A stretch of DNA of 64,000 bases from Kiritimatiellia bacterium (GCA_017558005.1 JAFYWN010000018.1:3696-67695); one strand, 5' to 3'; counted from the first letter of the stretch, positions 30,901 through 60,606 are shown. Numbers and translations: made by a program. The notes: generated from the letters alone by a model not told the origin.

Positions 30901-33900
30901 ACTTGGATTTGGCCAAGGCAACGGTGACGGGTGTCAATCAGACAGCGCCGAGTCGTACAAAGTTGGCCTTCCCCTTGACGTTGAATTGGGCCACGGGTGA
31001 AGTCGGCGAACAGACAATCCGAATCCCTGTGAAGGCAGACAAGACCGTGGAGGATGAGGAGACCTTTACACTTCAGCTCGCCAATCCAGAAAATATGGCA
31101 TTGGGGAGCAAGCAGGTGTGTATGGTGACGCTCCATGACACGAATGAAAAGGAACTGAAGGCAGCGGTGACGCCTTATAAACCGAAACCTGGCGAGTCGC
31201 CAGTGTCTCATCAGGTGACGGTTGGGCGGAATGATGGCGCTGCGGGCTTCGTGGCGGGGAGTGGTGAATATACCGCTGGCTCCAAGCTAACTCTCACCGC
31301 AGAGGCACGTCCGGGTTATGCCTTCGTGGGATGGGCCTTGAAGGAGGATCTTGAAAACCTTCTCTCCACCAATCCGAAGTATCAGATTGTGGTTGGTGAG
31401 GATGGCGACTATGTAGCTGTCTTTGAACCCATTCCCTATGTGCGTGGTCTTGCGACTCCGGCGGAGGGTGGTAAGGTGACGGGAAGCGGTTACTGTGCCG
31501 ACGGCAAGAAGGTGACCTTGAAGGCAAGCGCAAACAAGAACTTTGTCTTTAAAGGGTGGTATGCCGCCTCTGTGGAGAATCCGCAGACGCCTGATGAGGC
31601 GGTGTGCGTGGCAACAACGCCCTCGCTTGTGATTGATCGCACGGCAAAGCCGACGGCAAATTCAAAGACGTCAACGACGTTGACGGATATTGATGAGGAT
31701 GTCACCTTCTTTGCGCTCTTTGAAGGGGATCCACGCTTAGGTCTGACCATGATGCCTGAAAGCGCAGGTAAGGTGACGGGGGCAGGGCGCTATCTGCCAG
31801 GTACAAAGGTAACCCTGAAGGCAACGCCTAATAAGGGTTATGTCTTCGCAGGATGGTATCAGGATGAAGCCTTTACGATGCCGTGCGAATCCATGTTGGC
31901 GGACTATCGCAATCCAAGTTATACCTATGTGACGGGTGCAGCGGATGCAACACTCCATGCATGCTTTGTCCCCGCAGAAGAGGATCAGGTCTTAACATTA
32001 ACCGTTCAGAATAAGGTGAATGACGAGATTGCAGAAACCTTTACAATTAACGGAAAGGCTGAATTTGTACTTCTGGTGGACTCAAAGTCCTTGCCAAAGG
32101 CAACCGTGACAGGGCTTCCCACAGGCATGAAGTTCACGGCAACGCCTGTGATGGTGAAGGGGTCGAAGACCGAGGTGGAATATCCCATTAATACGATTTA
32201 TGGCACACCAACCAAGCCGGGCGTTTATACCGTAACAGTCTCGCTCACGAATAGCACAATTAAGAAGGCGATTACAAAGACCTTCGAAATTAACGTGCTG
32301 AACTTTACGGATGATTTGATCAAAGTAAAAGATTCTTACGGTCCATATGTTCCAGGTGTTTCGTATACCGTAGAGATTCCAGAAGCCGCAGGTTGCACGG
32401 TGACAGGTTTGCCCACTGGCATGAAGTGGACGGCAAAGGATATTATAGATTTAAAAACGAAGGAAGTAACAACGCCTGCGAACTCGGTCTATGGCATTCC
32501 GACGACACCTGGCAACTACACGGTCTATTTCACGAAGACGGTGGATAAGGTGAAGCACACGGCTACAGCAACCTTCATCGTGGGGCCGTATCCGCAGTTA
32601 ACCGTGGACGTTCCTGTGTGCACAGACGGAACAATTGGCGGTAAGGTGACGGGTGCGGGTGGTTTTGCCGCGAATAAGAAGGTTACCTTGAGGGCAACGC
32701 CAAACAAGGGCTATGTCTTCGCCGGGTGGTACAAGGATGCTTTCTTTGAAACACCTTGCGATTCCACGATAATGGACTATCGCAATCCAAGCTATACCTA
32801 TGTGATGGGTGATTGCGACACGCAATTCTATGCCCGATTCGTCACCAAGGAAGATGAAGCGGATTACAAGATGGGAATCGCTTTGTATCCATTGGATGCG
32901 CCGACTTTGGAAATTGATGAACTCGTTTACAAGGCGGGTGAAGCAATTTTGCCGATTTGGGTGATGGTGGATTCGCTCACCTTGCCAAAGGTGACCGTGA
33001 AGGGTCTCCCGAAGGGAATGCAGTTTGATGCCAAGACCTTCACGATTTCGGGAATGCCAACGCAACCTGGCGATTACGTCGTCTACATTGAAGCGGTCAA
33101 TGCTTCGAAGTCGTGTGTGGCAGTTGCGGAATTCTACTTCACAATCACACACTATGATGCACATGGGCTCCATCAGGATGAAGAAAAAGTCCTGATGGTA
33201 GCCGCCTTTGAAGCGGGTGAAATCGTTTTGGATGAGAACTTTAGTGACTTGTTGAACAGCGTTTCCGTCAAGTCATTCAAATTGCCCAGTGGCTTAAGCT
33301 ACGATTCAAAGACGAATTCCATCAAAGGCAATGGTACGCTAAAGTGTGGCACCTACGTCGCAACACTTACCGATACTGAAGGCAAAGTGACCTCCTTCAC
33401 GCTCGTGGCGGAACTTACCGACGAGGATAAGTTCACGTATCGGAACGCCCTATCACTTAATCCAGAATATGCTTATGGTTATGAGGGTATTGTTCAAGGT
33501 GTTAACGCAGAGGTCTTTTGGCTTGAGGTTCTAAAATCTTGCGATGATTTTGGAGGTGGTTCTGACGTTTGTTTATTGGACGCAGAAGAGGCTAAGGCAC
33601 TAAGTATTAAGGTCTCTGGTTTGCCGACGGGATTGAAGGCAAACTTTGAAAAAGAGTATGTTGAGGAGTGGGAGGGTGATGAATATGTGAGAGATGTCTA
33701 TGCGTGCGATCTTTGGTTGGAAGGTAAGACCTCGGCTGCGCCTGGAGATTATCATGTAACTGTAACCATCACGAATAGTCGTACAGGACAAGTGGAACAT
33801 GTTCCTTCATTAATTCGCATCTATCCTCCACAACCTATTCAAACGACTTGGAACGCTTCGTTTTCAACAGAAATGGTTGATGAAGAAACTGGCGAAGTGC

Positions 33901-34238
33901 GCAATGCACATGCGGATGTGGTCTACACCATTGATGGGACAAGCGGTAGTGTGACGTATTCTCTCACCATTGATCCGAGCATAAGTAATCCCACAGAAAA
34001 ACCAATCACAAGGTCTGGCAAGTTCTCCCTTTGGTGCATTGGTGTAAGAGAAAACTTAGACGGAGAGACATACTACTTGTATGAGTTTGACCACATTACC
34101 ATGACAACCGAAGTCTATGCATGGATTAATATCAATGCGTCACATGAGATTCAGTCTCTCCACTTTGATTATTGGGAAGAGCGTCTCTCAGATGTATATG
34201 ACTGGGTCCTCTGGGAGTGGGATGATTCTCCTTGGTGA
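21933..34238 (+). CDS. Giant (~4100 aa) secreted multidomain surface protein/adhesin
   Basis: Signal peptide MTTQK...QVKA with AAGGA-like RBS (start at 21933). Repeated beta-rich units, Calx-beta-like, choice-of-anchor-Q-like (GDPLFVD...GDFRI...SPCVDA), CARDB-like, IPT/TIG-like, carboxypeptidase-regulatory-like, PKD-like, SCDPNE domain, InlB-B/Flg_new-like and putative-Ig (GLPxG) repeats. Domain names assigned by eye. Confidence 0.85.
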   Translation: MTTQKTFRGVFQMVLFLFLGLMAPQVKASTVALLSDSNTATNCTVTMQGVDEQHNPIYSVMPWVESSPRIRFESRAWAEEVRSAASADPTVVVMGGRLGGTTPTWTSDKTFLVMNSVYVPSGVTLTIQAGTVVKFCPGTFIKIEDGGALNIVGAEGQDVILTAANDNTVGSQIVGFDETPITFGGIVIQSSAASFSENGYVQTRGFKFGNFPTLTLNNTTAFASGGVARIPVTLNGVTREKIFSIDWVAEVDGEAFTSGKLTWSKTGEGTKTIEVTFDEAFASAHDGFTIRVVAHRGCNVSSETCAVTLSQWVTLPIVTGMSESAAVVYEARGTATGKLVRGEVTLGELKGGAATQWDTTGLLDGWQTATVGTNATELLVLNDATIAIEGGRLAADTTWDNTVTHLVRNSVYVPSGKTLTITAGTVVKFGEGTFIKVEDGGKLTVVGAAGQDVIFTPANDNTVGTTVPGLGDETITYGGVWVQSGSATYTDNSYVQLRGFNYGSYPTLTLNDATLFATDGVAYLPVTLNGVTRNAAFSIEWEAVVDGEVFQTGALTWSKTGDGTKIVEIPFDRTFGEAHATFTVRIVTHRACNVGRGEATVTLLKRETLALATDIATSPAARYEGREGETAAIVRGEVTLGEPEGGAATQWDTTGLLDGWQTATVGESDAELLVLNDPTIAIEGGRMTADVTWDNTVTHLLRNSVYVPSGKTLTITAGSVIKFGEGTFIKVEDGGKLNVVGAAGQDVILTPANDTTVGAPVPGLGDETITYGGVWVQSGSATYTDNSYVQLRQFNYGNYPTVTLNDAVALRKNGGIYLALTLSGATRNQAFSIDWKATDDTAKLGQDYAVASGSVTWSKSGEGTKWIYIPLNTDEVAGESRTFTVSIDVARAVNVARGVATAQIDEYENAGLNGDEVTVTVGTESAAAPIQEDIAEQVLFLNDVETIQYSGRWQKYPAEEATKLRVSLATDNGVTVLKETTPDDTGAFDLTLADWPVGYYTLSHEVENDYGEVVATMSKSFSILDHEDYEWHAGTLTQNERWTADKVHVVYSTVYVPALYTLFVEPGAVVKFMTGAGIDISQGGAFFGDSIIFTHVNDDTIGGDVLSDGYTVAPPMDAYFLNGSFTFGDDTELRNITQKTALSGTISSDKKLSRGSVYRVSGTLTIASGATLTIPAGTVLKMESGATINVNSGATLKAEGTRAQPIIMTSIKDDSVGGDTNGDGNKTMPQPGDWHQIRVAGGTFNASNLSMLYLSNGNNQGGLFVTGGSATLDLCTIAHCKYDAMRSTGGTSYVVNSIFTDASIGVAPNGGYAEYVNCVFHSLTTAVRWPTGKFVNCIFSEVASVFFDSTGSTPIQNCVLWNPQGYGPQSVSVTGANGNIWGDPLFVDPMNGDFRIVEGSPCVDAADSIVAPEVDYYGQPRITMTEQEEGAELVGQLADIGICEVMPRDITSDIDLVPLSVRTASEAKIGELLFVKWEVQNVGGAEVSTAWRDTILLVSESGCTVALGDKVAGNQIVAGGTVFCSGYFTVPAIEEGTWYVKVNVNSYRDIFEGSLIQNNALTGDRPITLSLDALDANTTTEGVVNANTPKVLKFTYDEGDTNRMMTVKVPAGVKVTWGFDFVPQGVANSGSMIADANGATFRVPEDATDVYVVIESDTTAEYEVSTDSTQMVVTSVYPMTLPSSGKTTLTITGAGFDKASSIVLSTGGKDYAFESFVQNAMGNLVATVDCATLQAGAVYTLTVSDENNAVSLTNAISVTKAEGKGELVANLILPESARQGRIAVGYIEYTNVGTADMDAPIFKVMGWREGGQKTDIETALSTTIDGEFTGEILLVGISATHPAGLLKIGETNRIPFYYNVNSAFSLRLAAIDAQSTSTRDSIYPTWQSFSEAISDATTELNRFGECFDYNEIYRVAMRAGVGNVVTTLRGQVYSTISESPCANVTLQVFESNAVLLENITTNEDGYFEIKNLKVDETYTIVAKGKYQFSTNWCAKTASLGSVIFWVDPLGEFTCSVKGIAADNVNIVAVEVKTGQRVEADFENNLFNIKDLRDGEYTIGAEINGYYCLTDNYNVTVDDGVASISNVELEFVPSGVVVGTVLNEKGVPVPAVQCFVEREDDGKRYEFYSDENGQFIINVPSGVYIVRTETNYSLIKEYKITVVNQQISQKEFIVTPCPFMLKPAMGIAPFECSLKWKKEFNNYPEAISFEWDFDSDGVVDSIEESPKWTYTNAGVYDVTCNVTFVDGTQVFFAKKDAVDVLAEEIEILADDTVKLDKWSGWDIIDASDEYITVKFNEHCIASYLDVGTKIILPANPLSPYKILSLEKVEDDMLLLQVEPIFVELAYDTLAKTFSVELMADDNGFYNGGHTKSLTLSSEISKSFLNDKLTITGGASIGGTATVLIYEKKLEKCALNVEAKASLTGTFKVGTNLKKDDVKKKKNKKKKKKKNEDDDSRCTIAEKVILVGYVPIELKLYIFADCEISMSGSITTEATASVEAGYSKVKGWFSDAEGDASLADLSINGNASFFFGLGLDVIAGMPSTKLTKSVKLSALDGTFKVGPNFYVDIKYHPSEDEVADEYKIGADIKYEFTANLLNIKLWNFLDWKALTYTDERAWHIMMYTWKTPIPSFYCDEIYRGQNLSTVEFKRTTTVDPLETLFKSGYWEINGCEYPISTWNNQTVSHDFYIPSEDSADSVEYDVALYESYKPGNPLFSKLVLPACKANRTTLTFGTGKGEDGGAGWTGLGGHQGILPQSCDPNEMAGPLGIGDPETERFVKPGDWMTYTVYFENKSDATAAAQEVRVTNPLSQYLDWSTFEMGEVSFNNQIDLGLSGKQTGASEVALNNTAYKVKTTVALDQTKGEVNWYLRIVDPSTETTWPEDVYAGILPPNDETHRGEGYLTYRVKVREDVPAGVRIDNSATIIFDYNEPIETDPAWWNRVVPSQVPMSISPEATLVDEGETIEVKVFGGDLTRPSSAQVYLSYHTAAAADLDLAKATVTGVNQTAPSRTKLAFPLTLNWATGEVGEQTIRIPVKADKTVEDEETFTLQLANPENMALGSKQVCMVTLHDTNEKELKAAVTPYKPKPGESPVSHQVTVGRNDGAAGFVAGSGEYTAGSKLTLTAEARPGYAFVGWALKEDLENLLSTNPKYQIVVGEDGDYVAVFEPIPYVRGLATPAEGGKVTGSGYCADGKKVTLKASANKNFVFKGWYAASVENPQTPDEAVCVATTPSLVIDRTAKPTANSKTSTTLTDIDEDVTFFALFEGDPRLGLTMMPESAGKVTGAGRYLPGTKVTLKATPNKGYVFAGWYQDEAFTMPCESMLADYRNPSYTYVTGAADATLHACFVPAEEDQVLTLTVQNKVNDEIAETFTINGKAEFVLLVDSKSLPKATVTGLPTGMKFTATPVMVKGSKTEVEYPINTIYGTPTKPGVYTVTVSLTNSTIKKAITKTFEINVLNFTDDLIKVKDSYGPYVPGVSYTVEIPEAAGCTVTGLPTGMKWTAKDIIDLKTKEVTTPANSVYGIPTTPGNYTVYFTKTVDKVKHTATATFIVGPYPQLTVDVPVCTDGTIGGKVTGAGGFAANKKVTLRATPNKGYVFAGWYKDAFFETPCDSTIMDYRNPSYTYVMGDCDTQFYARFVTKEDEADYKMGIALYPLDAPTLEIDELVYKAGEAILPIWVMVDSLTLPKVTVKGLPKGMQFDAKTFTISGMPTQPGDYVVYIEAVNASKSCVAVAEFYFTITHYDAHGLHQDEEKVLMVAAFEAGEIVLDENFSDLLNSVSVKSFKLPSGLSYDSKTNSIKGNGTLKCGTYVATLTDTEGKVTSFTLVAELTDEDKFTYRNALSLNPEYAYGYEGIVQGVNAEVFWLEVLKSCDDFGGGSDVCLLDAEEAKALSIKVSGLPTGLKANFEKEYVEEWEGDEYVRDVYACDLWLEGKTSAAPGDYHVTVTITNSRTGQVEHVPSLIRIYPPQPIQTTWNASFSTEMVDEETGEVRNAHADVVYTIDGTSGSVTYSLTIDPSISNPTEKPITRSGKFSLWCIGVRENLDGETYYLYEFDHITMTTEVYAWININASHEIQSLHFDYWEERLSDVYDWVLWEWDDSPW

Positions 34239-34249
34239 CCTAAAAGACC

Positions 34250-34279
34250 AAGTGGACAGGGAAGGGCCCCTGTCCACTT
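34250..34279 (+). terminator. Intrinsic terminator after the giant gene
   Basis: aagtggacaggg-aagggc-ccctgtccactt followed by ttgttt. Confidence 0.75.
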
Positions 34280-34317
34280 TTGTTTATCAACAATTGCATA
34301 ACGTTCTAGTTTTCGGC

Positions 34318-34346
34318 TTGTACTTTCCAATAAAAGGGTGTAAAGT
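34318..34346 (+). promoter_or_regulatory. Sigma70-type promoter with extended -10
   Basis: TTGTAC-17 bp-TAAAGT with TG before the -10; the same layout is conserved at 56962-56990. Confidence 0.65.
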
Positions 34347-34422
34347 ATAGAGAGATTGTTCAACTTGAGGCTGTTGGTTTCTTTTGCCACGCATTGAATT
34401 ATTTTACGAAAAGAGGTATCGA

Positions 34423-37400
34423 ATGAAAAAGTTCTTACTCGCCCTTTGCCTCTTGATGGGTCATGCCGCCCTCTACGCAGCCACGGATCTTCTCTCCACT
34501 CCGTCTGCTCATGGAAGTGATTTTGTGACAGTTACCTTTAATGCGAATGGTGGTACTGGTGGTGCGACGATTACGCAAATGCCTGGAAGTAAGCTTGAGG
34601 CACCCATTGTTGCGCGCCCAGGGCATATTTTCGTTGGTTGGGATCCTGAAGTGCCGAAAGTCGTACCTCGCGAAGCGAGAACTTACACGGCAAAGTGGAG
34701 AATGTTTGAGGGGGAATGGGCTGATATTGGTTTTGTTAGGGGTAAGTCAAATTCCAACTCCCTCGTATTCATTGACAAATTTTATACCAACAACCCATCG
34801 TTAGAGGATGAACTGGGGAGATGTACGGTTATTGGCCTTCCTAAAGGAATTACCTTTAAGCAAAGGGATTATCCTGACGATCTTGAATTTTTAATTTCAG
34901 GTAAGACGAGTGTTCCCGTGGGGGACTATCCAGTGTTGTTTCAATTTGAAGATTCCTCCTACATATCGGCTAAGATAAAGGTGCGAGATCCCCTTCCCTC
35001 ATTTACCGCGACTTACAAAAGTACCACGAAGGAAGTGCCTGTAGGTTGGGATTATGGGGATGATTGGCCTATGGAGACAAAGGCTAATGTAGATGTTGAG
35101 TATCAGGTGGTCAACGGAGAGCTGAAAAAAATTAAGTACAAAAGTTCATATTTTGATAAAGATTATGGTTCTTGGAATCGTGAGTATGAAATCTCTGATA
35201 CTAAGTACTGGGCGGTTATCACAAGGGATGGTAAAGAGGCTATAGCCGTGGGTGGAAGGTATGATTATCCAACGAGGGGTGGTGTTGAGTATGAGTGCCT
35301 TTATGCTGCGATTCTTTTTTGGGATGACAATACTGTAACAGGTGGCGTGGGATATGATTACGAGGAGGATGCGAGGGGAAATATTTACATCATTGAAGGG
35401 CATGGTAACTGGGGCGGCGCTCCCATTGAGGTAAAATGCACGAGCTACTTTGGTGTTGAGAATATTGGGAGTGGATCCGGCAAAACAACACATTCAGGCA
35501 CGGTTGCGTTAGGCAATTCAGTGACGTTAAAGGCCACGGCAGATAAGGGAAGTCTCTTTGCTGGATGGTATTCGGATCCCGAGGGGCGACGTCCCTTAAA
35601 AGCGGCAGTAGATTATCGCACGACATCTCTTTCGCATACAATTACTAACGCTTTTGAAAAAGTGTATGCAAAGTTTGTCACAGCAGAAGAGGACCACTTG
35701 TTAACGTTAACTGTGAAAGGGAAAGAAATAACCGATGGCTCACACACCTTTATGGTGGATGGCCCGTTTGTTTTGACCTTTGACGTTGGCTCAAATTCAC
35801 TTCCGAAGGTTTCAGTAAAGGGGCTCCCCGCTGGGATGAAGTTTACTGCTACGCCAGTGATGGTCAAGGGTTCAAAGACGGAGGTGGAATATCCTGCGAA
35901 TAGCATTTATGGTACACCGACGAAGCCGGGTATTTATACGGTGACGGTCTCGCTTACGAACACGACTGTGAAGAAGGCAATTACAAAGACCTTTAATATT
36001 AAGGTGCCGAATTTGACAGCGCCTGACATTGATATTGACGATTGCTACGGAGAATACATCCCTGGCGTTTCGTACACAAAGCCGATTCCTGGAGCAGAGG
36101 GTTGTACTGTGACGGGCTTACCTGCAGGCATGAAGTGGACGGCAAAGGATATTTACAAGAAGGGTTCTAAGACGGAAGTTGAAACGCGTGCGAACTCGGT
36201 CTATGGAGTGCCGACAACGCCTGGTAACTACACGGTCTACTTCACAAAGACGGTGGATAAGGTGAAGCACACAGCTACGGCGACCTTCATCGTGGGACCG
36301 TATCCGCAGTTAAGCATTACAGTAAATGATGAAGCTGGTGGTAAGGTAACTGGCACAGGTGGCTTTGCTGCGAACAAGACGACAACTTTGAAGGCAACGC
36401 CGAACAAGGGTTATGTTTTTGCTGGATGGTACGAAGATGCAACCTTTGAAAACCCGTGTGACTCCACTTTAGTGGATTATCGCAATCCAAGCTATACTTA
36501 TGTGATGGGAGCAACAAATAAGACCTTCTACGCTCGCTTTGTCCCAGCAGAAGAGGATCACTTGTTAACGTTAACTGTAAAAGGGAAAGAAATAACCGAT
36601 GGTTCACACACCTTTATGGTGGATGGCCCGTCTGTTTTGACCTTTGATGTTGGCTCAAATTCACTTCCGAAGGTCTCTGTGAAGGGGCTCCCCGCTGGGA
36701 TGAAGTTCACGGCGAAGCCTGTGATGAAGAAGGGTTCGAAGACGGAGGTGGAATATCCTGCTAATACGATCTATGGGACACCAACGAAGCCTGGTATTTA
36801 CACCGTAAAGGTGGCACTCACGAACACCACAATTACGAAGGCTATTACGAAAACCTTTAACATTGAAGTGCCGAATTTGACCGCAGCGAATGAGTATTTT
36901 AATGTTACGCTTCAAAATGGTTCTGGTGACGCATACCAACTTGTTGCAGGGGATGCGAATGTGAGCAGTTTGCCCTCGCTTACGTTACGTGATCCGAACT
37001 GTAAACTTGCGGTGAGCGGTTTGCCAGCAGGATTGAAGTACGATGCAAAAACAGGTCAGATTGTCGGCGTGCCGACAAAGACCGGAACCTTTACGGTGAC
37101 CTTGACCGTAACAGAGGGGACGCAAAAGATTGTTTCAACGATAACAATCAAAGTTACAACTTTGCCCTCTTGGGCAATCGGAACTTTTGGAGGCGAATTA
37201 GAAAACCAATGGCTTGAAGACGATGGCCCTGCGTATGCATATGGAGATGCCTATCTTGAGATTGATGACGAAGGCTATGTGTTTGGACAGATTGAATTGT
37301 GGGATGACTACAGTTACACATACAGCGATATCGCGACTAAGGCGACCGTAAAGATATTGGCGGATGGTTGTTGTTTGCTGAAAATTCCTGCAGATATCTA

Positions 37401-37932
37401 CACAGAAATGATCGATGAAGGCTATACGTACCATGAGGGACGTTACACATTGGAAGCAACGATAGATAAGACGGGCTATCTTTCGCTGGACTATGGTCGT
37501 CGCGATTATGGTGAGTTTCTTCACGGAGACTTATTTCAATGGGGTGATTCTTTGCCCTCTTGGGTGACGGGAACATACTCCTGCGATTATCTCGAGAATG
37601 GATGGTGGTGTGACGACTGCGATCAAATGGAATACGCATATGGTAATGGATGGGTTGAGATTGATGCGGCAGGCAATGTTTTGGGGAAAATCAATCTTTG
37701 GGATGATAGCTCCTATACATACGCAGACGTTGATGCTAAGGCGGCCGTAAAACTTAAAGATGATGGTACGTATTCTTTGAAGTTTAGTGTGAATGTTTAT
37801 ACAAAGCATCACGACGGCAGAACCGAATATGAAGGTCGCTTTATACTTGAAGTAATCGTAAATGATGAGGGGAAACTTTTGCTTGATTACAGAGACCCGA
37901 GCGATTACGTAAGAGGAACCTTTTGGAAATGA
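34423..37932 (+). CDS. Secreted surface protein (~1170 aa) with InlB-B-like and putative-Ig repeats, paralogous to the giant protein's stalk
   Basis: AAGAGG RBS, signal peptide MKKFLLALCLLMGHAALYA; GYVFAGWY, GLPAGMKF...YGTPTKPG repeats; internal 864-bp duplication; duplicated LPSW..GT C-terminal domain. Confidence 0.85.
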   Translation: MKKFLLALCLLMGHAALYAATDLLSTPSAHGSDFVTVTFNANGGTGGATITQMPGSKLEAPIVARPGHIFVGWDPEVPKVVPREARTYTAKWRMFEGEWADIGFVRGKSNSNSLVFIDKFYTNNPSLEDELGRCTVIGLPKGITFKQRDYPDDLEFLISGKTSVPVGDYPVLFQFEDSSYISAKIKVRDPLPSFTATYKSTTKEVPVGWDYGDDWPMETKANVDVEYQVVNGELKKIKYKSSYFDKDYGSWNREYEISDTKYWAVITRDGKEAIAVGGRYDYPTRGGVEYECLYAAILFWDDNTVTGGVGYDYEEDARGNIYIIEGHGNWGGAPIEVKCTSYFGVENIGSGSGKTTHSGTVALGNSVTLKATADKGSLFAGWYSDPEGRRPLKAAVDYRTTSLSHTITNAFEKVYAKFVTAEEDHLLTLTVKGKEITDGSHTFMVDGPFVLTFDVGSNSLPKVSVKGLPAGMKFTATPVMVKGSKTEVEYPANSIYGTPTKPGIYTVTVSLTNTTVKKAITKTFNIKVPNLTAPDIDIDDCYGEYIPGVSYTKPIPGAEGCTVTGLPAGMKWTAKDIYKKGSKTEVETRANSVYGVPTTPGNYTVYFTKTVDKVKHTATATFIVGPYPQLSITVNDEAGGKVTGTGGFAANKTTTLKATPNKGYVFAGWYEDATFENPCDSTLVDYRNPSYTYVMGATNKTFYARFVPAEEDHLLTLTVKGKEITDGSHTFMVDGPSVLTFDVGSNSLPKVSVKGLPAGMKFTAKPVMKKGSKTEVEYPANTIYGTPTKPGIYTVKVALTNTTITKAITKTFNIEVPNLTAANEYFNVTLQNGSGDAYQLVAGDANVSSLPSLTLRDPNCKLAVSGLPAGLKYDAKTGQIVGVPTKTGTFTVTLTVTEGTQKIVSTITIKVTTLPSWAIGTFGGELENQWLEDDGPAYAYGDAYLEIDDEGYVFGQIELWDDYSYTYSDIATKATVKILADGCCLLKIPADIYTEMIDEGYTYHEGRYTLEATIDKTGYLSLDYGRRDYGEFLHGDLFQWGDSLPSWVTGTYSCDYLENGWWCDDCDQMEYAYGNGWVEIDAAGNVLGKINLWDDSSYTYADVDAKAAVKLKDDGTYSLKFSVNVYTKHHDGRTEYEGRFILEVIVNDEGKLLLDYRDPSDYVRGTFWK

Positions 37933-37934
37933 AC

Positions 37935-37960
37935 ATTGGGGCGCCTTCGGGCGCCCTAAT
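37935..37960 (+). terminator. Terminator-like hairpin with C(UUCG)G loop
   Basis: attggggcgcc-ttcg-ggcgccctaat right after the stop codon. Confidence 0.7.
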
Positions 37961-38080
37961 CTCTTTAAATTAAAATAAGAATGGGGAGCACGGGGTGAAG
38001 GAGAAGAAGAACCCAAGGGGGCGTCTAACTTAGGAAGAATTCTCAAATAGTAGAATTTTGAGTTATTTTCTTTTAAATTG

Positions 38081-38089
38081 TGCTATACT
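38081..38089 (+). promoter_or_regulatory. Extended -10 promoter element for argG
   Basis: TGCTATACT ~37 bp before the ATG; AAGGAG RBS follows. Confidence 0.55.
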
Positions 38090-38125
38090 TTCGCACGTTT
38101 TTATTTAATTAAGGAGTAAAACCTC

Positions 38126-39367
38126 ATGGCAATGGTTTTGGATGACCTCAAAGGTATGGTGGCTGGCACTTGCGTTTCCGGTGGTTTGGATTCGCGTACA
38201 ATCGCTAAGGTGATGATGGAAGCTGGCGTGAAGGTGATCGGTTTCACGGGTGGCATTGGCCAGCCTGACGAAGCAGATATCAATGACGTGGCAAAGCGTA
38301 TGGCGCCGACGGGCATTGAAACGATTATCGTTGATTTGCGCAATGAAATGGCTGATGCATGCTTGGAAGCAATTAAGTGCCAGGCAATGTATGATGGCGG
38401 TTATTGGAATTCCACTGGTATCGGTCGCGCAGTGACCATCAAGGGTTTGATTCCTGAGATGAAGAAGCGTGGCGTGCAGGTGTTGGTGCATGGTGCAACG
38501 GGTCGTGGTAATGACCAGATGCGCATTGAACGTTACACCAATGTGTTCGCTCCTGAAATGAAGGTGTATGCTCCGTGGCGTGATGCTGGTCTTCTTGAAA
38601 AGTTCCCTGGCCGTACGCAGATGGTGGATTACCTCGCCCAGTTTGGCATCGTAGCTTTCGCGGGTGGCAAGAAGAAGTATTCGACTGATGCTAATATGGC
38701 GGGTCTTTCTCACGAAGCAGAAGATCTCGAAAGCATGGAAACGTCCATGCAGATCGTTGAACCGACCATGGGCGTGTGGCCGTGGCAGGCTCCTGACAAG
38801 TTTGAGCAGGTTTCCATCCGCTTCGCTAAGGGTCGCGTGGTGCAGATTAATGGCAAGGATGTGACCCCGCTTGAAGCGATGATGCTCGCAAATGAAATCG
38901 GTGGCCGCAATGGTATCGGTATGAAGCACGCGCTTGAAAATCGTATCATCGGTACGAAGAGCCGTGGCGTGTATGAAGCACCGGGTATGGAATTGCTCGG
39001 TACGGCAATCCGTTATGTCTATCAGGCAACGATGGATCGTCGTGCGACCTTGTTCTTCACGCAGTTGTCTAAGTTGATTACTGATGAAATCTACGATGGT
39101 CGTTACTACGATCCGACCTGCGTGGCAGCTCGTAATGCGGTGGATACGCTCGCGCAGTACGCAGATGGCACGGTCAAGCTTAGCCTCTACAAGGGTAACA
39201 TCATCTTTGATGCACTCACGGACTGCCCGCATACCATTTATAATGAAGCAGACTCTTCGATGGAAGCTTCTGATGGTGTGAATCCGGTTAGCTCGCAGGG
39301 CTTTGCTGAAATTCAGTCGGTGGAAGCACGCATGTTGGCGCTCTCTGGCCAGATTGAAGGTCGCTAA
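38126..39367 (+). CDS. argG: Argininosuccinate synthase
   Basis: SGGLDS, HGATGRGNDQMR, YSTDANM, ENRIIGTKSRGVYEAPG. Confidence 0.94.
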   Translation: MAMVLDDLKGMVAGTCVSGGLDSRTIAKVMMEAGVKVIGFTGGIGQPDEADINDVAKRMAPTGIETIIVDLRNEMADACLEAIKCQAMYDGGYWNSTGIGRAVTIKGLIPEMKKRGVQVLVHGATGRGNDQMRIERYTNVFAPEMKVYAPWRDAGLLEKFPGRTQMVDYLAQFGIVAFAGGKKKYSTDANMAGLSHEAEDLESMETSMQIVEPTMGVWPWQAPDKFEQVSIRFAKGRVVQINGKDVTPLEAMMLANEIGGRNGIGMKHALENRIIGTKSRGVYEAPGMELLGTAIRYVYQATMDRRATLFFTQLSKLITDEIYDGRYYDPTCVAARNAVDTLAQYADGTVKLSLYKGNIIFDALTDCPHTIYNEADSSMEASDGVNPVSSQGFAEIQSVEARMLALSGQIEGR

Positions 39368-39392
39368 GGCGCGATAGACTTCAATTGAAGTA

Positions 39393-39430
39393 GAAAGAGG
39401 CGTTATCCCGCTCGGGCTAACGCCTCTTTC
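39393..39430 (+). terminator. Intrinsic terminator after argG
   Basis: gaaagaggcgtta...taacgcctctttc, 13-bp stem. Confidence 0.75.
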
Positions 39431-39540
39431 ATTTGGGTGCATAATAAATAATTGCATACATGAAATAGAGAAATACTTTTTGATGTAATGGTGATTGTTT
39501 TTTGATAGAATTTAGACAATTTTTTCAAAAGGAGTTTTCG

Positions 39541-40416
39541 ATGCTTAAGCTCAAAGGTGTTTTCACTGCTTTAGTGACGCCGTTTAATGACGACGGAACG
39601 GTTGACTATGGTGCATTGCGCGCGAATATTCAGTGGCAAATTGAAGAAGGCGTGTCGGGCATGTGCCCAGTGGGTACGACGGGTGAGTCGCCCACGCTTA
39701 GCCCTGAAGATCACCTCAAGGTGATTGAGGCCACCGTTGATGCGGTGAATGGCCAAGTGGCAGTGATTGCAGGCACGGGTGCAAATTCCACCGAAGAAGC
39801 GCTTCACTTGACAAAGGAAGTGCAGGATTTGGGTGTTTCTGCAACGCTTCAAGTGACTCCTTACTACAACAAGCCGAATGCTGAAGGGCTTTATCGTCAC
39901 TTTGCTGCAGTGGCAGATTTGGGCGTGCCGGTGGTGCTTTACAATGTACCGGGGCGCAGCGCAAAGGAAATCCCGCTTTCGGTGGTGGCCCGTTTGGCTC
40001 AACATCCCAATGTGTGCGCAATCAAAGAAGCAGCAGGGAGTGTCGATCGCGTCTCGGCAATCCGTCAAATCGCACCTGATTTGACGATTTTGTCTGGCGA
40101 CGATGGTTTGACATTGCCGATGATTTCTGTGGGTGCAGAGGGCGTGATTTCGGTCTGCTCTAATGTGATTCCGCGTGAAATGAGTCAGATGGTCGCCTAT
40201 GCGCTTGAGGGTGATTATGCTGCGGCGCGTACCTTGCATGAGACCTACTATCCGCTCTTCCGTGATATGTTCTGCGATACGAATCCGATTCCTGTGAAGG
40301 CGGCTCTTGCCATGATGGGACGCATTCGTCCGGTTTATCGTTTGCCGCTCTGCGAGCCCGATGCTGCGAATGCGGAATTGATTCGCAAGACCCTCACGAA
40401 TCTCAACTTGATCTAA
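39541..40416 (+). CDS. dapA: 4-hydroxy-tetrahydrodipicolinate synthase
   Basis: TALVTPF, GTTGESPTL, TPYYNKP, LYNVPGRS, IKEA, TNPIPVKAAL; AAGGAG RBS before 39541. Confidence 0.96.
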   Translation: MLKLKGVFTALVTPFNDDGTVDYGALRANIQWQIEEGVSGMCPVGTTGESPTLSPEDHLKVIEATVDAVNGQVAVIAGTGANSTEEALHLTKEVQDLGVSATLQVTPYYNKPNAEGLYRHFAAVADLGVPVVLYNVPGRSAKEIPLSVVARLAQHPNVCAIKEAAGSVDRVSAIRQIAPDLTILSGDDGLTLPMISVGAEGVISVCSNVIPREMSQMVAYALEGDYAAARTLHETYYPLFRDMFCDTNPIPVKAALAMMGRIRPVYRLPLCEPDAANAELIRKTLTNLNLI

Positions 40417-40423
40417 GGAGTCG

Positions 40424-41197
40424 GTGATGAAGCTTGCTATTCTTGGCGGTGCAGGTCGAATGGGGCGTATGCTCATTGACTGTGCCAAGGAAATGAATCT
40501 GCAAGTGATTGCAGTGACGGAAGCTCCTGGCAGTGAGTGCATTGGCAAGCCTGCCACGGGGGCGATTCGTTTCCAAGAGACGTGGCCTTGTGATGCAGAT
40601 GCAGTGATTGACTTTACGTTTCACACCTGCGTGAAAGAAAACCTCGTCAATGCCGTAAAATGTCGTCAGACGTATGTGCTTGGTACAACGGGATTGACGG
40701 CTGACGAATTGGCAGCAGTGGATGCCGCAGCGAAGGAGATTCCGATTTGCTTTGCGCCGAATTTCTCGCTTGGCGTGAATTTGCTTTTGGAACTTGTTCG
40801 CCGTGCCGCTTCCGTGCTTGATGCGTCTTATGATGCTGAAATCGTTGAGATGCATCACCGTCACAAAAAGGATGCCCCGAGTGGTACTGCGCTTGGCTTG
40901 GCTCAAGCATTGGCGAAGGGCCGTGGCGTAAATTTGGATGATGTGGCGTGCTATGGTCGTGAGGGCATTGTAGGCGAACGTCCCATCGGCGAAATCGGCG
41001 TGCATGCGATTCGCGGTGGTTCTGTGGTGGGCGATCATACGGTGATGTTTGCCGCAGACGAAGAACGTGTTGAAATCACGCATAAGGCCGTTTCCCGTGC
41101 TGCATTTGCAAAGGGTGCGTTGAAGGCTTCTCAGTGGTTGGAAGGTCGTCAACCTGGACTTTACAACATGCGCCACGTACTTGGCTTTGAAGACTGA
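40424..41197 (+). CDS. dapB: 4-hydroxy-tetrahydrodipicolinate reductase
   Basis: GGAGRMG, IDFT, GTTG, APNFSLGVN, EMHHRHKKDAPSGTA. Confidence 0.96.
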   Translation: MMKLAILGGAGRMGRMLIDCAKEMNLQVIAVTEAPGSECIGKPATGAIRFQETWPCDADAVIDFTFHTCVKENLVNAVKCRQTYVLGTTGLTADELAAVDAAAKEIPICFAPNFSLGVNLLLELVRRAASVLDASYDAEIVEMHHRHKKDAPSGTALGLAQALAKGRGVNLDDVACYGREGIVGERPIGEIGVHAIRGGSVVGDHTVMFAADEERVEITHKAVSRAAFAKGALKASQWLEGRQPGLYNMRHVLGFED

Positions 41198-41212
41198 CCC
41201 CTGAGGTGCACC

Positions 41213-43869: not shown

Positions 43870-43904
43870 AAGCAAAAGTTTTTTAGGGTTTCAGACTTGG
43901 GAAA

Positions 43905-49261: not shown

Positions 49262-49281
49262 TCAATTGGTGCGTTAACACG

Positions 49282-49319: not shown

Positions 49320-49483
49320 GTAGTCTATACACTTGGTTTAATTTGTCTTAGTTGGGCTCCAAATGATACATGGAACCATAAAAATGGAGCATTTTATGGC
49401 TTTTGATATGCGGATTTGCTTGATTTTTTCAATGAAGTATCGAAATATGCTATACTATTTGTACTGATTTTAAGGAGGTTTTT

Positions 49484-51039: not shown

Positions 51040-51059
51040 ATTCGGATTGAGAATGGGCG

Positions 51060-51944: not shown

Positions 51945-51971
51945 TGCGTGAACTGACAGAGGAGTATCTCA

Positions 51972-53279: not shown

Positions 53280-53280
53280 G

Positions 53281-55934: not shown

Positions 55935-55962
55935 AAATAATCGCACATTATCGCAACAATTG

Positions 55963-55971
55963 TGATATAAT
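55963..55971 (+). promoter_or_regulatory. Extended -10 promoter element for tRNA-Pro
   Basis: TGATATAAT 16 bp upstream of the tRNA. Confidence 0.7.
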
Positions 55972-55986
55972 GTGCGCAACTTTTTA

Positions 55987-56063
55987 CGGAGCGTAGCGCA
56001 GCCTGGTAGCGCATCTGCTTTGGGAGCAGACCGTCGGGGGTTCAAATCCCTCCGCTCCGACCA
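55987..56063 (+). tRNA. tRNA-Pro (anticodon TGG), CCA encoded
   Basis: Acceptor stem cggagcg/cgctccg, D-arm gcgc-agcctggta-gcgc, anticodon arm tctgc-tttggga-gcaga, T-loop gttcaaatc. Confidence 0.97.
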
Positions 56064-56257
56064 CCTTTTTAAGCGACGATGTATCCATCGCCGCTTTTTT
56101 ATTTTTCCTTCCCATTAAATCCTAATTGTCCCTCCGCTGCGGGTAGGGTGGGGGCTAACTTCGCCACACCTTCAAGCATGGAGCGCCGCACACCTCAAAG
56201 CCTCTTCTGCCAGACGCTCCTCATTTTCTCTGCCCATAAAGCCCTCAATCCTGAGAT

Positions 56258-56278
56258 AAAAGGGCGAAACCCTTTTTT
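56258..56278 (+). terminator. Terminator-like hairpin that is also the left inverted repeat of the array
   Basis: aaaaggg-cgaaa-ccctttttt. Confidence 0.6.
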
Positions 56279-56299
56279 AATTTCTAAGAAAGTGAATCC

Positions 56300-56431
56300 A
56301 AGTTTGTAACAAACTGAACTTGAGTTTATAACAAACTAGATTTGCGTTTGTAACAAACTAGATTTAAGTTTGTAACAAATTGGATTTAAGTTTGTAACAA
56401 ACTGAACTTAAGTTTGTAACAAACTGAACAT
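56300..56431. repeat. Six 22-bp tandem units, each built on the palindrome AGTTTGT-A-ACAAACT
   Basis: aagtttgtaacaaactgaactt and variants at 56300, 56322, 56344, 56366, 56388, 56410. Confidence 0.92.
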
Positions 56432-56708
56432 TCATTTCGCCCTTTTTCATTTCTTCAATACTTTGTACTCTATTTGCCATTCCGTAACTTATTCATTTAC
56501 AATAATTTATCTTGAATATTTTATGGCGGGTAATTTTAGGCTTAAAATCAGTACAATCTGTACTATCCGTGCAAAATTTAAACAGTACAATTTTTGATGG
56601 GGCAAATTAATTTAAGGGAAAATTTCCGCTCGGGAAGAAATCTCAAATACTACAATTTTTGGCCGGGAACTTTTTAGACCTGTTTAGAAAATTCTAGAAA
56701 ATAGTACG

Positions 56709-56782
56709 AAGGGTCGAAGAAATGAAATGTAACAAATTGGATTTAAATTTGTAACAAACTGAACATTCATTTCGCCCTTTTT
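56709..56782. repeat. Second, shorter copy of the array (about 2 units) with the same right-end tail
   Basis: tgtaacaaattggatttaaatttgtaacaaactgaacattcatttcgcccttttt matches units 4 and 6 plus the tail of the first array. Confidence 0.88.
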
Positions 56783-56961
56783 GCTCAGAGGTTTCTCCGC
56801 TATGGAAGTGATCAGTGGTTAATTCATCGCTAAAAATCTCCAAGCCGCAAACAATTTATCTATCCTTAATTTGCCTGAACGACGAGCGCTTGTCCATCTC
56901 ATTTATCCCTAAGCTTTTTTACTAAGAATATAAACGTTCAAGATGAAAAAATACTTTTGAC

Positions 56962-56990
56962 TTGTCTTTTTATTTAAAAGGGTGTAGAGT
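56962..56990 (+). promoter_or_regulatory. Sigma70-type promoter, paralogous to 34318-34346
   Basis: TTGTCT-17 bp-TAGAGT, shared aaaagggtgta.agtata. Confidence 0.65.
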
Positions 56991-57084
56991 ATATGTGAGG
57001 ATATGATGTTAAGATGAGGCGGTACTCTTATATCATGCATTGAAATTATCATGCATTGAAATGTTTTACGAAAAGAGGTGTAAA

Positions 57085-60000
57085 ATGAAAAAGTTTTTAT
57101 TTATGCTTTGTCTACTGATGGGGTATGCCACCCTTCACGCAGACACGGCTAAAGTTAATGGTATTACTTGGCATTACCAAGTCTCAGATGGTGAAGCAAA
57201 GATTTATAACGATTATTACACTTCTGCAATACCATCCTCTGCCAGTGGCGCAATTACCATTCCCTCCACCCTTGGCGGTTACCCTGTGACCTCCATTGGG
57301 GATTATGCGTTTTATGAGTGTGGTCGGTTATCCTCGGTGACGATCCCTGAAGGCGTGACCTCCATTGGGGATTATGCGTTTGAGGATTGTTGGAAATTAA
57401 AAAAGCTTGATATTCCTTCCACTGTTAAATCTATTGGCCGTTACTCCGGAGAGGGAGAAGTATTTGCCTATTCCTTTGATTTGAAAATTACGGTTGCTGC
57501 AGAAAATCCAAACTACACCTCCAAAGATGGCGCATTATTTAATAAGGACATGACCACGTTGTTGCGCGGACCTGGCGCAACAGCGAATTATATAATTCCT
57601 GATGGTGTGACGGATATCGCGGACTTCGCCTTTTGTGGGAGTGAACGTTTAGAGTGGGTTACAATACCTGCCTCGGTGACTTCACTAAGTTGGAGTTCTT
57701 TTGATTCTTGTACATATGTAAGAATTAAGGTAAAAAATGGAAATAAGCACTACATAGCCTCAAGCGAAGGTGCGTTGTTTGATAAAGCAATGACAACGTT
57801 AATTCGTGGACCGGGTAAAACGGCTCACTATAAAATCCCTCACGGTATTGAGGTTATTGGAGTACGCGCTTTTAAGTGGACAGATATCAAAACTGTAGAA
57901 GTCCCTAATAGCGTAACAATAATTGAGGAAGGTGCGTTTTTTTCTTGTACAAAACTAGCCTCTATTTCACTTCCAAATAGTGTGAACAGAATTGAACGTG
58001 GAGCTTTTGATTGTTGTGAAAGTTTAACGAGTCTTACAATCCCTGCAAGCGTGACTATGTTAGGCAGTACGTTTGTTAGTGGCGACTGTGTCAAATTGAA
58101 ATCCATTTACTTTGAAGGAGTGCCGCCCAGTGATGAGTATGGAGATTATAACTGGGCCTCGGACTGGTGGGAAGTTCGCCCCTGGAAATTGACGGGCTAT
58201 TATCCCCCTACTTGTGCGTTAGATTGGGAAGAAATTATCGATAAGGACGGGTACATTTACGACCTTAAAATGGAACTCCTATCTAAGTCCGTTACTATTA
58301 CATTTAACACAAACGGTGGCAATAATCATCTTGGACAAACGGGAAAGATTCAGGAAAAAACGACATTTGGTTCTGTATTAGTAGCGCCAATAGTGACACG
58401 ACAGCATTATACATTTACGGGATGGTCTCCTGCATCGACGGGCATCGCGCCTGCAGTAAATACCACTTACGTAGCGCAGTGGGAGCCAATCATTAATATG
58501 GGTGGGGATGTTGAGCCCCGACAGATTACTTATACGATTAAGAATAAACAAGCCACCATTACCGGATGTTCGGAAAACATCTCGGGATGGTTAGATATTC
58601 CCGAAATGATTGGGGATGCCGTGGTAACTGCTATTGCTGCGAATGCGTTTAAGGAACAAATGGGTTTAACCGCTGTAACTTTCCCAGATACGATTACGTC
58701 AGTTGGAGCAGATGCATTTAAGGGATGTATCAATCTTGCGACTGATAACCTCATAATGCCGTCAATGTTAAAGACATTAGGCAAAGGCGCCTTTACGGGA
58801 TGCATGGCAGAAGCCATTAATCTCCGCCCCGGATCAGTGTTCACAATGGATGATTTGGCAGGATACAAGCTTAATACAACGGCTTCAGGTGCTAAGTTAA
58901 ACGCAAAAACTGGAATTTTAACAGCCACCTTTACAAAGCCAGGCGAGTATGAAGTCGTTTTATCAAAACCTGGATACGGAATAAAAGCGGTATCATTTAA
59001 TGTTGGAGCACTGCCTATACTTTCGCTTTCAATGGACGGTGGCGATGCCAAGTGCAAGGTTAGTGGTGCGGGTGCCTATTTAGTTGGCAGGAAGACCACA
59101 CTGAAGGCTACGGCAAGTAAGGGCTATGTTTTTGCTGGGTGGTACAAGGATTCATACTTTTGGGAATCTTGCGATTCCACTTTGGTGGACTATCGCAATC
59201 CGAGTTACACCTATGTGATGGGTGAAGAGGATACGCAGTTCTATGCTCGCTTCGTCACCAAGGAAGATGAGGCGAATTACGAAATGGGAATTGAACTCAT
59301 TGATGAATTCTACAATTCCTTAGGCGATTATTTACAGGTACGCGCGGGCGAAGTGATGGAGCCAGTTAAGGTTTGGGTTGATTCTTTGACCTTACCCACC
59401 GTAACGGTCACAGGACTTCCGACGGGTCTAAAGTTTGATGCTAATACCTTTACGATTTCTGGTAATCCCACGAAGCCAGGTTTTTATCCGATTACGATTG
59501 AAGTCAAAAATGCCTCAAAGAGTCGTAGCGCATTTGCGATTGTGAACTTGGAAGTTCGCCATTTTGATGCCCATGGGCTTCATGGCGATTGGGAGGATGC
59601 AGAGCCTATTGTGGTGGATGCATTTACAACAGAGCCGTTTAACTTAGAGGATTGGTTTGGCGGTTTCTTCAAAGATATTCCAATTAAATCGCTGAAGCTT
59701 CCTGCGGGACTCACCTACAACGCAAAGACTGGCACAATCAACGGCAATGGGAAATTGAAGTGTGGTTCGTATACAGTCACCTTGACGGATAAAGCGGGTC
59801 AAGTTACCACCTTCACCCTCGTGGCAGAACTTGACGAAGCGGATATGTTTACTTATGAAGACTACTTTACGCCTAACGAAGAATGGGGAGGAGTATATAA
59901 CGGCGTTGTTCAAGGAACTAACACTGATATTTGGTGGATATCAATTTTAAAGTGCAAAGAAGAGTCGGAAAATTGGTGGGATTGGGATCGTTGTCATTTA

Positions 60001-60606
60001 GATATGGCAACGGCTCAGGCTCTGAGTGTTAAGGTTACTGGCTTGCCAAGTGGTTTAAGAGCCAGCTTTGAAAAATATTGTTCGGAAGAAAAGACCTATG
60101 AATGTGACATCTACTTAGAAGGCAAAACTTCTGCAGCGCCAGGCGATTATCCCGTGACCGTTACAATTAGTAATTCGCGAACGGGGCAAGTTGAGCATGT
60201 TTCTTCCGTAATACGCATCTTTCCGGCACCCTCCATTCAAATGAAAAAGAAATTCACGCTTGAGGCAGATGATTATTATGACGAAAACGGAAAACCGCTA
60301 GAGGCGCATGCAGAGGTAACTTATACCATCAATGGAATAAGTGGGACTGCAGCCTATAAGGTGACAATGGAGCGTCCCAATGGAAAACAGTTTACTACGT
60401 CTGGAAGTCTTCCACTAAACGACATTTTTGTAACAGCAACAGTTCCCCCAACCGGCTACCTTGAGTATAGTTATTATTTTTACACTGCAACATCTATAGC
60501 AGAGGCTGATATTGGGATAACACTCAATGAAGATGGGGTAGTCGACTTCTCTTGGGTATGGCTTGGGTATACCCAAGACTATTCATTTAGTTGGTATCCT
60601 TGGTAA
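57085..60606 (+). CDS. Secreted BspA/LRR_5-type leucine-rich-repeat surface protein with InlB-B-like and putative-Ig stalk
   Basis: AAGAGG RBS, signal peptide MKKFLFMLCLLMGYATLHA; VTSIGDYAF / VTIPEGVTSIG / SISLPNSVNRIERGAF repeats; the C-terminal ~500 aa is colinear with the giant protein's C-terminus. Confidence 0.88.
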   Translation: MKKFLFMLCLLMGYATLHADTAKVNGITWHYQVSDGEAKIYNDYYTSAIPSSASGAITIPSTLGGYPVTSIGDYAFYECGRLSSVTIPEGVTSIGDYAFEDCWKLKKLDIPSTVKSIGRYSGEGEVFAYSFDLKITVAAENPNYTSKDGALFNKDMTTLLRGPGATANYIIPDGVTDIADFAFCGSERLEWVTIPASVTSLSWSSFDSCTYVRIKVKNGNKHYIASSEGALFDKAMTTLIRGPGKTAHYKIPHGIEVIGVRAFKWTDIKTVEVPNSVTIIEEGAFFSCTKLASISLPNSVNRIERGAFDCCESLTSLTIPASVTMLGSTFVSGDCVKLKSIYFEGVPPSDEYGDYNWASDWWEVRPWKLTGYYPPTCALDWEEIIDKDGYIYDLKMELLSKSVTITFNTNGGNNHLGQTGKIQEKTTFGSVLVAPIVTRQHYTFTGWSPASTGIAPAVNTTYVAQWEPIINMGGDVEPRQITYTIKNKQATITGCSENISGWLDIPEMIGDAVVTAIAANAFKEQMGLTAVTFPDTITSVGADAFKGCINLATDNLIMPSMLKTLGKGAFTGCMAEAINLRPGSVFTMDDLAGYKLNTTASGAKLNAKTGILTATFTKPGEYEVVLSKPGYGIKAVSFNVGALPILSLSMDGGDAKCKVSGAGAYLVGRKTTLKATASKGYVFAGWYKDSYFWESCDSTLVDYRNPSYTYVMGEEDTQFYARFVTKEDEANYEMGIELIDEFYNSLGDYLQVRAGEVMEPVKVWVDSLTLPTVTVTGLPTGLKFDANTFTISGNPTKPGFYPITIEVKNASKSRSAFAIVNLEVRHFDAHGLHGDWEDAEPIVVDAFTTEPFNLEDWFGGFFKDIPIKSLKLPAGLTYNAKTGTINGNGKLKCGSYTVTLTDKAGQVTTFTLVAELDEADMFTYEDYFTPNEEWGGVYNGVVQGTNTDIWWISILKCKEESENWWDWDRCHLDMATAQALSVKVTGLPSGLRASFEKYCSEEKTYECDIYLEGKTSAAPGDYPVTVTISNSRTGQVEHVSSVIRIFPAPSIQMKKKFTLEADDYYDENGKPLEAHAEVTYTINGISGTAAYKVTMERPNGKQFTTSGSLPLNDIFVTATVPPTGYLEYSYYFYTATSIAEADIGITLNEDGVVDFSWVWLGYTQDYSFSWYPW

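Follow-up and report, generated by a model that had tools for sequence, protein, structure and literature searches.

The window analysed here, a 64,000-nucleotide stretch of a Kiritimatiellia bacterium (GCA_017558005.1 JAFYWN010000018.1:3696-67695), contains three large genes, W1, W2 and W3, whose products are part of a modular protein family of an uncultured gut species; the family counts at least nine members and is probably being reshuffled by recombination at conserved module sequences, mainly between diverged alleles of different strains. The nine members are, judging from their composition, probably secreted, cell-surface modular proteins. Kiritimatiellae are common in gut and sediment and almost unstudied, not least in what they display towards hosts, phages or substrates. 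The genome analysed comprises 2.05 Mb in 37 contigs and is ~90% complete. Contigs from other strains were sampled through an identical ArgG at the gmk-argG locus, which holds W1 and W2, and through an identical aminotransferase at the W3 locus; the identity of these anchor proteins among the sampled contigs shows the strains to be conspecific.

Unit maps were drawn with hidden Markov models built on two recurring units, F (Flg_new_2/Flg_new) and H (He_PIG). W1 reads as a head followed by F-F-F-H-H-F, H-H-H and a C-terminal domain A; W2 as a signal peptide, f (Flg_new), H, an unassigned domain, F-H-H-F-H-H and two copies of tail B; and W3 as a signal peptide, a BspA leucine-rich repeat (LRR) head, f (Flg_new), F, H-H-H and C-terminal domain A. 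What recurs is an F-H-H supermodule (Flg_new_2 plus two Ig-like He_PIG domains), present in 1 to 3 copies, and all three proteins score above the cut-offs of the Listeria-Bacteroides repeat models (PF18998 / PF09479 / TIGR02543) and of PF05345. An earlier reading made from the sequence alone had described the three genes as mosaics with shared stalk modules and unrelated heads, and the heads do differ: W1 has a giant head region of beta-helix, Calx-beta and CarboxypepD_reg type and combines Calx-beta, CarboxypepD_reg, TIG, PKD and DUF7619 domains with its Flg_new_2 and He_PIG units, the head of W2 is without Pfam match except for Flg_new and He_PIG, and that of W3 is BspA LRR_5 (Pfam E 8e-60; 200.7 bits against a cut-off of 27.7), a domain for which neither W1 nor W2 gives a Pfam match. 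The shared blocks that it named are equally real. Aligned identity is 52% (E 1e-150) between W1 aa 3291-3839 and W2 aa 356-912, and 48% (E 5e-141) between W1 aa 3546-4094 and W3 aa 632-1165, tail A of W1 being colinear with W3 aa 740-1188, while W2 and W3 have an F unit and the signal peptide in common. The motif KGYVFAGWY...DYRNPSYTYV occurs in all three proteins, and the 63-nt pattern of the near-identical block in W1 and W2 is found exactly twice with 0 mismatches, 0 being expected by chance, the two copies agreeing at 59/63 bases. The 864-bp internal duplication of W2 was recovered as well (35674-35973 against 36538-36837, 87% identity), and the N-terminal module of W2, thought to resemble the terminal module of the other two, is a distant homologue of it (hhalign probability 96%, E 4e-9, 101 columns).

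Comparison of conspecific strains shows that both loci are content-variable presence/absence islands. At the gmk-argG locus, contigs L027, L031 and L036 join ~20077 directly to ~38040 and have no island, the same empty site being found at five places similar to L027 and one similar to L036. L028 and three similar places instead retain a deletion scar, in which the C-terminal 225 aa of W1 are left beside a W2 stub of 93 aa that is frameshifted. The scar records loss by deletion; within it (L028:8334-9625) the W1 remnant is an open reading frame (ORF), and the frame of the stub breaks where 34570 meets 37603. Neither an integrase nor att-like repeats were visible at the borders. Other contigs have the complete island, in which the gene that follows the giant gene exists in three states, a W2-type form of 1169-1178 aa, a 1550-aa LRR form and a 725-aa LRR form. 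The fullest comparison is with L013, which is syntenic with window 24750-41063 and whose argG and dapA flanks are 97-100% identical to those of the window; among the conspecific strains, blocks inside the genes range from 100% down to 39% identity. In L013, 3.5 kb of unrelated sequence take the place of the central 3.2 kb of W1, the borders at ...VVTSVYP and DPNEMAGPLGIGDPE being sharp, and L030 and L039 are also without a match to this central cassette. The W1 stalk drops from 94-99% to 71-90% identity, a divergent patch lies in tail A (~33335-33694), and 289 nt stand in place of window 36294-37554. Patches of 58-80% identity lie inside otherwise 94-99% identical sequence and are bounded on both sides by matching sequence. 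The W2 duplication is present in L014, L015 and L032 and absent in L013 and L030.

The second gene is itself a mosaic. The W2 ortholog of L013, P0124 (1550 aa), carries an extra 2161-nt head of LRR plus Flg_new, with its left joint in the signal-peptide cassette and its right joint at the TFNANGG start of Flg_new. In the 1550-aa allele X124 the unique 2.1-kb LRR head is followed by aa 795-1193, ~1.2 kb that are 96-100% identical to allele A32, whereas the last 960 nt are 100% identical to A30, the 725-aa allele. The end of tail B occurs in two types, one in W2 and A32 and the other in X91, X124 and A30, which are 39-77% identical to each other and whose distribution, in codon-aligned alleles, is independent of the sequence upstream. 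Along four second-gene alleles, the three possible site partitions fall in consecutive blocks (111..333..222), and the pairwise homoplasy index (PHI) is 0.19 as observed against 0.40 +/- 0.011 when permuted (p<=0.001).

At the W3 locus, contigs with the identical aminotransferase carry the W3 LRR gene as in the window, a W1-like body fused to a W3 tail, or no gene. The empty state is seen in L038, from the same strain as L013, in which ~56906 is joined to 61013 through ~310 nt of unrelated sequence. In L039, L040 and L043 an F-H-H stalk like those of W1 and C30 (one of the paralogs described below) is joined to a W3-type tail at ~59056-59102, with a downstream flank 95-97% identical to the window; the gene in L039 encodes 4549 aa, with an LRR head on a giant W1-like body and with three F-H-H units. 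The joint at ~59056 is the start of the colinear block named in the sequence-only reading. That reading would have yielded to old duplications had gene architectures been fixed across strains; they are not, because conspecific strains carry different combinations of head, stalk and tail, one of them with a W1-like body on a W3 tail at that very border.

Beyond allelic exchange, paralogs evidently trade sequence too, W1 with W2 and W1-type with W3-type genes. For W1 aa 3582-3611, identity with the W2 ortholog from L014 is 93%, whereas the ortholog of W1 itself reaches 74% and W2 from this genome 69%, and the L013 sequence corresponding to W1 aa 3808-3837 (~33288-33377) is nearer to W3-type sequence than to W1. 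In protein P0005 the head is W2-type, the stalk W1-type and the tail W3-like, the last being 90-96% identical to W3 at the nucleotide level for ~400 nt and 40-60% identical thereafter. Quartet site patterns, sliding-window identities and PHI were used for these comparisons; the F-unit protein tree is too short for resolution. Site patterns follow orthology in 158/158 sites of the upstream F unit and are mixed in H-H-F. With six sequences, PHI gives p<=0.001 for the H-H-F and for the F-H-H-F blocks and p=0.47 for the upstream F part; over all the comparisons the signal is found in three alignments and is missing from the control segment; on the H-H-F block with four sequences only, the test (p=0.40) is without power. 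The joints recognized in all these comparisons lie at conserved blocks, namely the leader/signal-peptide cassette at the 5' end, the point where Flg_new begins (TFNANGG), the F-unit start at ~59056, H units and the beginning of the second tail-B repeat. The 5' cassette of W2 aligns with the 5' regions of W3, C9, C23, X4 and X124.

A tblastn search of the genome finds nine full-length genes, W1, W2 and W3 plus six further paralogs on contigs C30, C9, C15, C35, C23 and C17, and no silent partial cassettes. The further paralogs all have LRR heads (6/6) and tails of type B or other, and all but C17 have F/H stalk units, C23 having an F unit only. Hydrophobic, signal-peptide-like leaders were aligned in 7/9 members (W2, W3 and all but one of the further paralogs), and as their sequences read, all nine are full genes, each with its own putative N-terminal leader of the Sec signal-peptide type. 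Outside this genome, PF18998 and PF05345 are combined in hundreds of metagenomic proteins with LRR_5, PKD, Peptidase_C10, InlK_D3 or reprolysin heads; a contig scan with the W1 stalk and tail as query returned no relatives. In the closest sister species, G005 (locus L018), the genes of window 1-5740 lie ~1.2 kb from argG (window 38123-39364), and therefore ~32 kb, including the minus-strand block 6104-19223, are placed differently there.

The predicted structures are in keeping with a surface role. In the AlphaFold2 model of W2 the stalk has a pLDDT (predicted local distance difference test) of 80-93, the head below 50 and tail B 50-70; the stalk is modelled as a confident chain of beta-sandwich domains and the tails as moderately confident beta meanders. 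With Foldseek the stalk matches the cadherin-like modules of SraP (4m00, 4m02 and 4m03, up to 29% identity), Ig cell-adhesion molecules, Sap (6hhu/9g93) and SbsB (4aq1), with low whole-chain TM-scores because single domains alone superpose. The modelled W3 head matches gut-bacterial LRR surface proteins (4gt6 and 4fs7), PcpA (4cp6) and TpLRR (6mlx). Because the basis is domain content and predicted fold, an adhesin-like role in surface display is one that we infer for this family.

How would such mosaics arise? The strain comparison shows new combinations of head, stalk and tail generated by recombination with joints in conserved module sequences, most of the visible events taking place between diverged alleles of one species' strains and occasional ones between paralogous genes; unequal exchange alters the number of stalk repeats, and deletions remove genes or whole loci. 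No dedicated machinery came to light. RVT_1, the marker of reverse transcriptases, has no match in the 90%-complete genome although the control genomes matched, the genome has no serine recombinase or resolvase, and its two tyrosine recombinases are Xer-like and lie on contigs C9 and C28; the earlier statement that the window holds no recombinase extends to the whole contig. The modules all stand in direct orientation, and the differences between alleles are whole blocks and not adenine-specific. Reshuffled, swapped, deleted and missing versions among strains therefore point to ordinary homologous recombination, presumably of the RecA type, with no dedicated machine, recombinase or retroelement. 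Selection on exposed binding or antigenic regions of the surface proteins may maintain the resulting diversity, with host, phage or ligand niche as possible agents. All of this fits mosaic surface-gene evolution of the ordinary kind and calls for no new genetic mechanism.

A number of observations weigh against this explanation. All sequences compared are metagenome assemblies, and the X124 recombinant is known from a single one of them. ComEC was not found in the ~90% complete genome and DprA gave a weak match only; for most divergent patches the same genome holds no donor above about 80-90% identity; and Pfam and NCBIfam recognize neither anchoring nor sorting signals among the tail sequences. 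The modules shared within the genome are old. Synonymous divergence (dS) between paralogous modules runs from 0.9 to saturation and is 0.55 for the H copies of the W2 duplication, against 0.16-0.25 between orthologs of different strains; conserved blocks are 87-94% identical, and near-identical tracts between W1, W2 and W3 are absent, their longest exact matches being 27, 20 and 16 nt. Because exact identity among paralogs in the genome is at most 28 nt, present-day exchange within the genome should be inefficient, and nothing in the sequences suggests recent exchange among its copies of W1, W2 and W3. Such ages are what would be expected if the modules were relics of old duplications, with fixed architectures and no ongoing exchange. 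Yet conspecific architectures differ at both loci, 100%-identical tracts sit in unrelated alleles, site patterns are blockwise incompatible, and the PHI values given above are significant, so that old duplications alone are an extremely improbable account. Of the earlier proposal that recombination at conserved blocks generates a repertoire of adhesins, the part that stands is mosaic genes with joints at conserved blocks at the level of the population. The idea of a dedicated system or within-cell mechanism finds no support, given anciently diverged modules, full genes and neither reverse transcriptase nor extra recombinase. Programmed variation within the cell, by antigenic cassettes, a shufflon or a process like that of diversity-generating retroelements (DGRs) with high-frequency switching of heads and tails, could look for its signature in the common 5' promoter/signal-peptide cassette, the conserved blocks at joints, the two allelic tail-B ends and the palindromic 22-bp arrays upstream of W3. 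Against the missing enzymes, the nine full-length genes in place of silent cassettes, the imperfect identity of the conserved blocks and the fact that the island is simply missing in many strains, we hold it to be very improbable. Particular forms of it were also rejected: a DGR target, with no RVT_1 in the genome and block-type allele differences; a shufflon or invertible element, with no resolvase, tyrosine recombinases on C9 and C28 and direct orientation throughout; and cassette variation of the pilE/pilS or vlsE type, with full-length genes only, blocks of 87-94% identity and exact matches of at most 28 nt.

Could the mosaics have been made by the assemblers? Every locus comes from metagenomes, the genes are full of repeats and X124 has its single source, so that short-read assemblers might have jumped, within repeated modules, from one co-occurring strain or paralog to another; L012, upstream of its W3 ortholog, does switch to the sequence of another contig of this genome at a multi-copy repeat. 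But the alleles were recovered independently with different assemblers from different samples (A30 three times, X91 twice at 100% identity), the form with W1 body and W3 tail was found three times and the sequence of the window recurs at 100% identity in 4 other assemblies, while exact matches between paralogs, at 16-28 nt, are below usual k-mer sizes and the divergent patches have matching sequence on both sides. Artefact is accordingly a quite improbable source of the pattern as a whole. Somewhat less improbable, though still unlikely, is that the two loci are hot spots for independent insertions, with surface genes arriving ready-made from mobile elements or from other taxa. Genes come and go at both loci, W3 adjoins tRNA-Pro and a multi-copy repeat element, and the W1/W2 island before argG was not found in the sister species; a genome from another family of the order gives 17 matches at 35-54% identity, as good as those of same-genus genomes, and the best relative of the X124 LRR head in this genome does not exceed 37% identity. 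Long segments of 96-100% identity are, however, interleaved with divergent ones inside single genes, and recombination in place is therefore needed; in addition L028 documents loss by deletion, and the borders lack visible integrase genes or att-like repeats. Horizontal acquisition may supply new heads without displacing reshuffling by homologous recombination as the principal explanation. A bolder version of that explanation, which we put forward as a doubtful but not negligible possibility, is that the arrangement is a combinatorial display design that is selected for, the portable 5' cassette and the conserved tail/terminator ends serving as recombination anchors for any head or stalk at either locus; the unassigned tails (type A ending ...YPW and type B beginning LPxWxxGT..) would then be an undescribed Kiritimatiellae module for surface attachment or export.

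The family has several counterparts among known systems. BspA-like LRR surface proteins include Tannerella BspA, Treponema LrrA/TpLRR, pneumococcal PcpA and LRR proteins of gut commensals, and W3 and the six paralogs with LRR_5 heads resemble them as a presumably secreted multigene family. Only W3, C9, C15, C17, C23, C30 and C35 qualify, because W1 and W2 lack LRR_5; the present family is instead defined by an F-H-H stalk and two unassigned tail types. The Listeria-Bacteroides repeat and InlB B-repeat proteins are matched by all three genes, but these are domain families and not a described system, and the regular F-H-H supermodule and its variation in copy number from 1 to 3 are known from the sequences analysed here only. 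In their predicted stalk, a chain of beta-sandwich modules, the proteins would be comparable to SraP-type adhesins and to the S-layer proteins Sap and SbsB, from which they differ in having no serine-rich repeat (SRR) regions and no LPXTG or S-layer homology (SLH) anchors. A parallel in evolutionary behaviour is provided by pneumococcal PspA/PspC, streptococcal M and M-like proteins and neisserial Opa, mosaic surface genes diversified by homologous recombination. Near-identical flanks, blockwise identity of 100% against 40-80% within a gene, deeply diverged forms of the tail-B end, exchange with neighbouring paralogs and significant PHI are features in common; the host here is unlike theirs, an uncultured, commensal-type member of the Kiritimatiellae, and whole 2-kb heads and giant 3-kb cassettes are swapped. 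The domain families and mosaic recombination are thus already known; the example in an unstudied phylum is new. Multigene families of BspA-like LRR proteins have been described, including a large one in Trichomonas (PMC2843621), and gene conversion and allelic dimorphism are known for Plasmodium surface antigens (PMC10919680).

Table 1. Features of the three genes and their islands (window coordinates).
Feature	Coordinates	Strand	Description
W1	21867..34238	+	ORF, 4123 aa; giant secreted protein (predicted) with large beta-rich head, stalk F-F-F-H-H-F and tail A
W1 central cassette	26968..30186	+	In frame, low GC content (0.38 at 28001-30000); replaced in other strains
W1 stalk	31215..32843	+	Flg_new_2 and He_PIG units; H-H-F part (~32085-32843) recombination-hot
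W1 63-nt block copy	32538..32600	+	TVDKVKHTATATFIVGPYPQL; exact pattern match
W1 tail A	32844..34238	+	Three He_PIG units, then a ~150-aa beta-rich C-terminal domain ending ...DDSPW
W2	34384-37932	+	1169 aa; likely start ATG 34423 (MKKFLLALCLL...)
W2 5' cassette	34317..34484	+	Promoter-like region, leader, ribosome-binding site, signal peptide
W2 tandem duplication	35674..37401	+	864 bp; two F-H-H-type units
W2 63-nt block copy	36250..36312	+	Exact pattern match
W2 tail B	37156..37932	+	Two ~125-aa beta-meander repeats; last ~350 nt with two deeply diverged allelic types
W3	57040-60606	+	1173 aa; likely start ATG 57085
W3 F unit and tail A	59020..60606	+	Head-swap joint at ~59056-59102
gmk-argG island	20078..38047	+	FGE-like gene, W1, W2; strain-variable
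W3 island	56907..61012	+	5' cassette, W3, terminator region; present or absent by strain

Several further observations concern the surroundings of these genes. Directly upstream of W1, within the strain-variable island, lies an ORF at 20831-21772. The low-GC central cassette of W1 contains the homopolymers G8 (29102-29109) and A8 (29265-29272), possible slippage sites, the A8 run sitting in the Lys-rich stretch KKKKNKKKKKKKNEDDD. Between W2 and W3 the window carries argG, dapA, a subtilase gene, lpxK, murJ, dapF, rsmE, a ZIP transporter gene, mlaEFD and tRNA-Pro. Two minus-strand ORFs in this interval (38105-39457 and 39571-40557), which have no Pfam match and lie across from plus-strand ORFs roughly as long as expected for ArgG and DHDPS, overlapping them, are probably spurious, because syntenic loci call argG, dapA and dapB on the plus strand. 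The tRNA-Pro (TGG) at 55987-56063 lies immediately upstream of the W3 island and of palindromic arrays, with no integrase present; a tRNA neighbourhood is typical for variable islands. The arrays are built of a 22-bp unit with the palindrome AGTTTGT-A-ACAAACT and occupy 56275-56447 and 56720-56782, upstream of W3; similar arrays are found on contigs C1, C5, C9, C13, C15 and C35, often near contig ends, and L038 has a single array at this site. L012 changes synteny at the array element, its upstream 1.2 kb matching contig C2 at 96.7%. Downstream of ygbB, just past the end of this genome's contig, L037 (15509-16969) and L040 (10258-11835) carry Microvirus-like genes (Phage_ORF5, Chlamy_scaf and Phage_F) on contigs that are otherwise identical or 97% identical to the region analysed here.

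The two islands provide a clean and well-resolved example, at the sequence level, of strain-level surface diversification in a little-studied phylum, in which strains with housekeeping genes 97-100% identical exchange or lose entire heads, giant cassettes inside genes, stalk repeats and the ends of tails. The variable genes are candidates for adhesins or antigens specific to a strain and would serve metagenomics as useful strain markers, and the two unassigned C-terminal domains, which occur also in related metagenomic proteins, merit structural and functional study.

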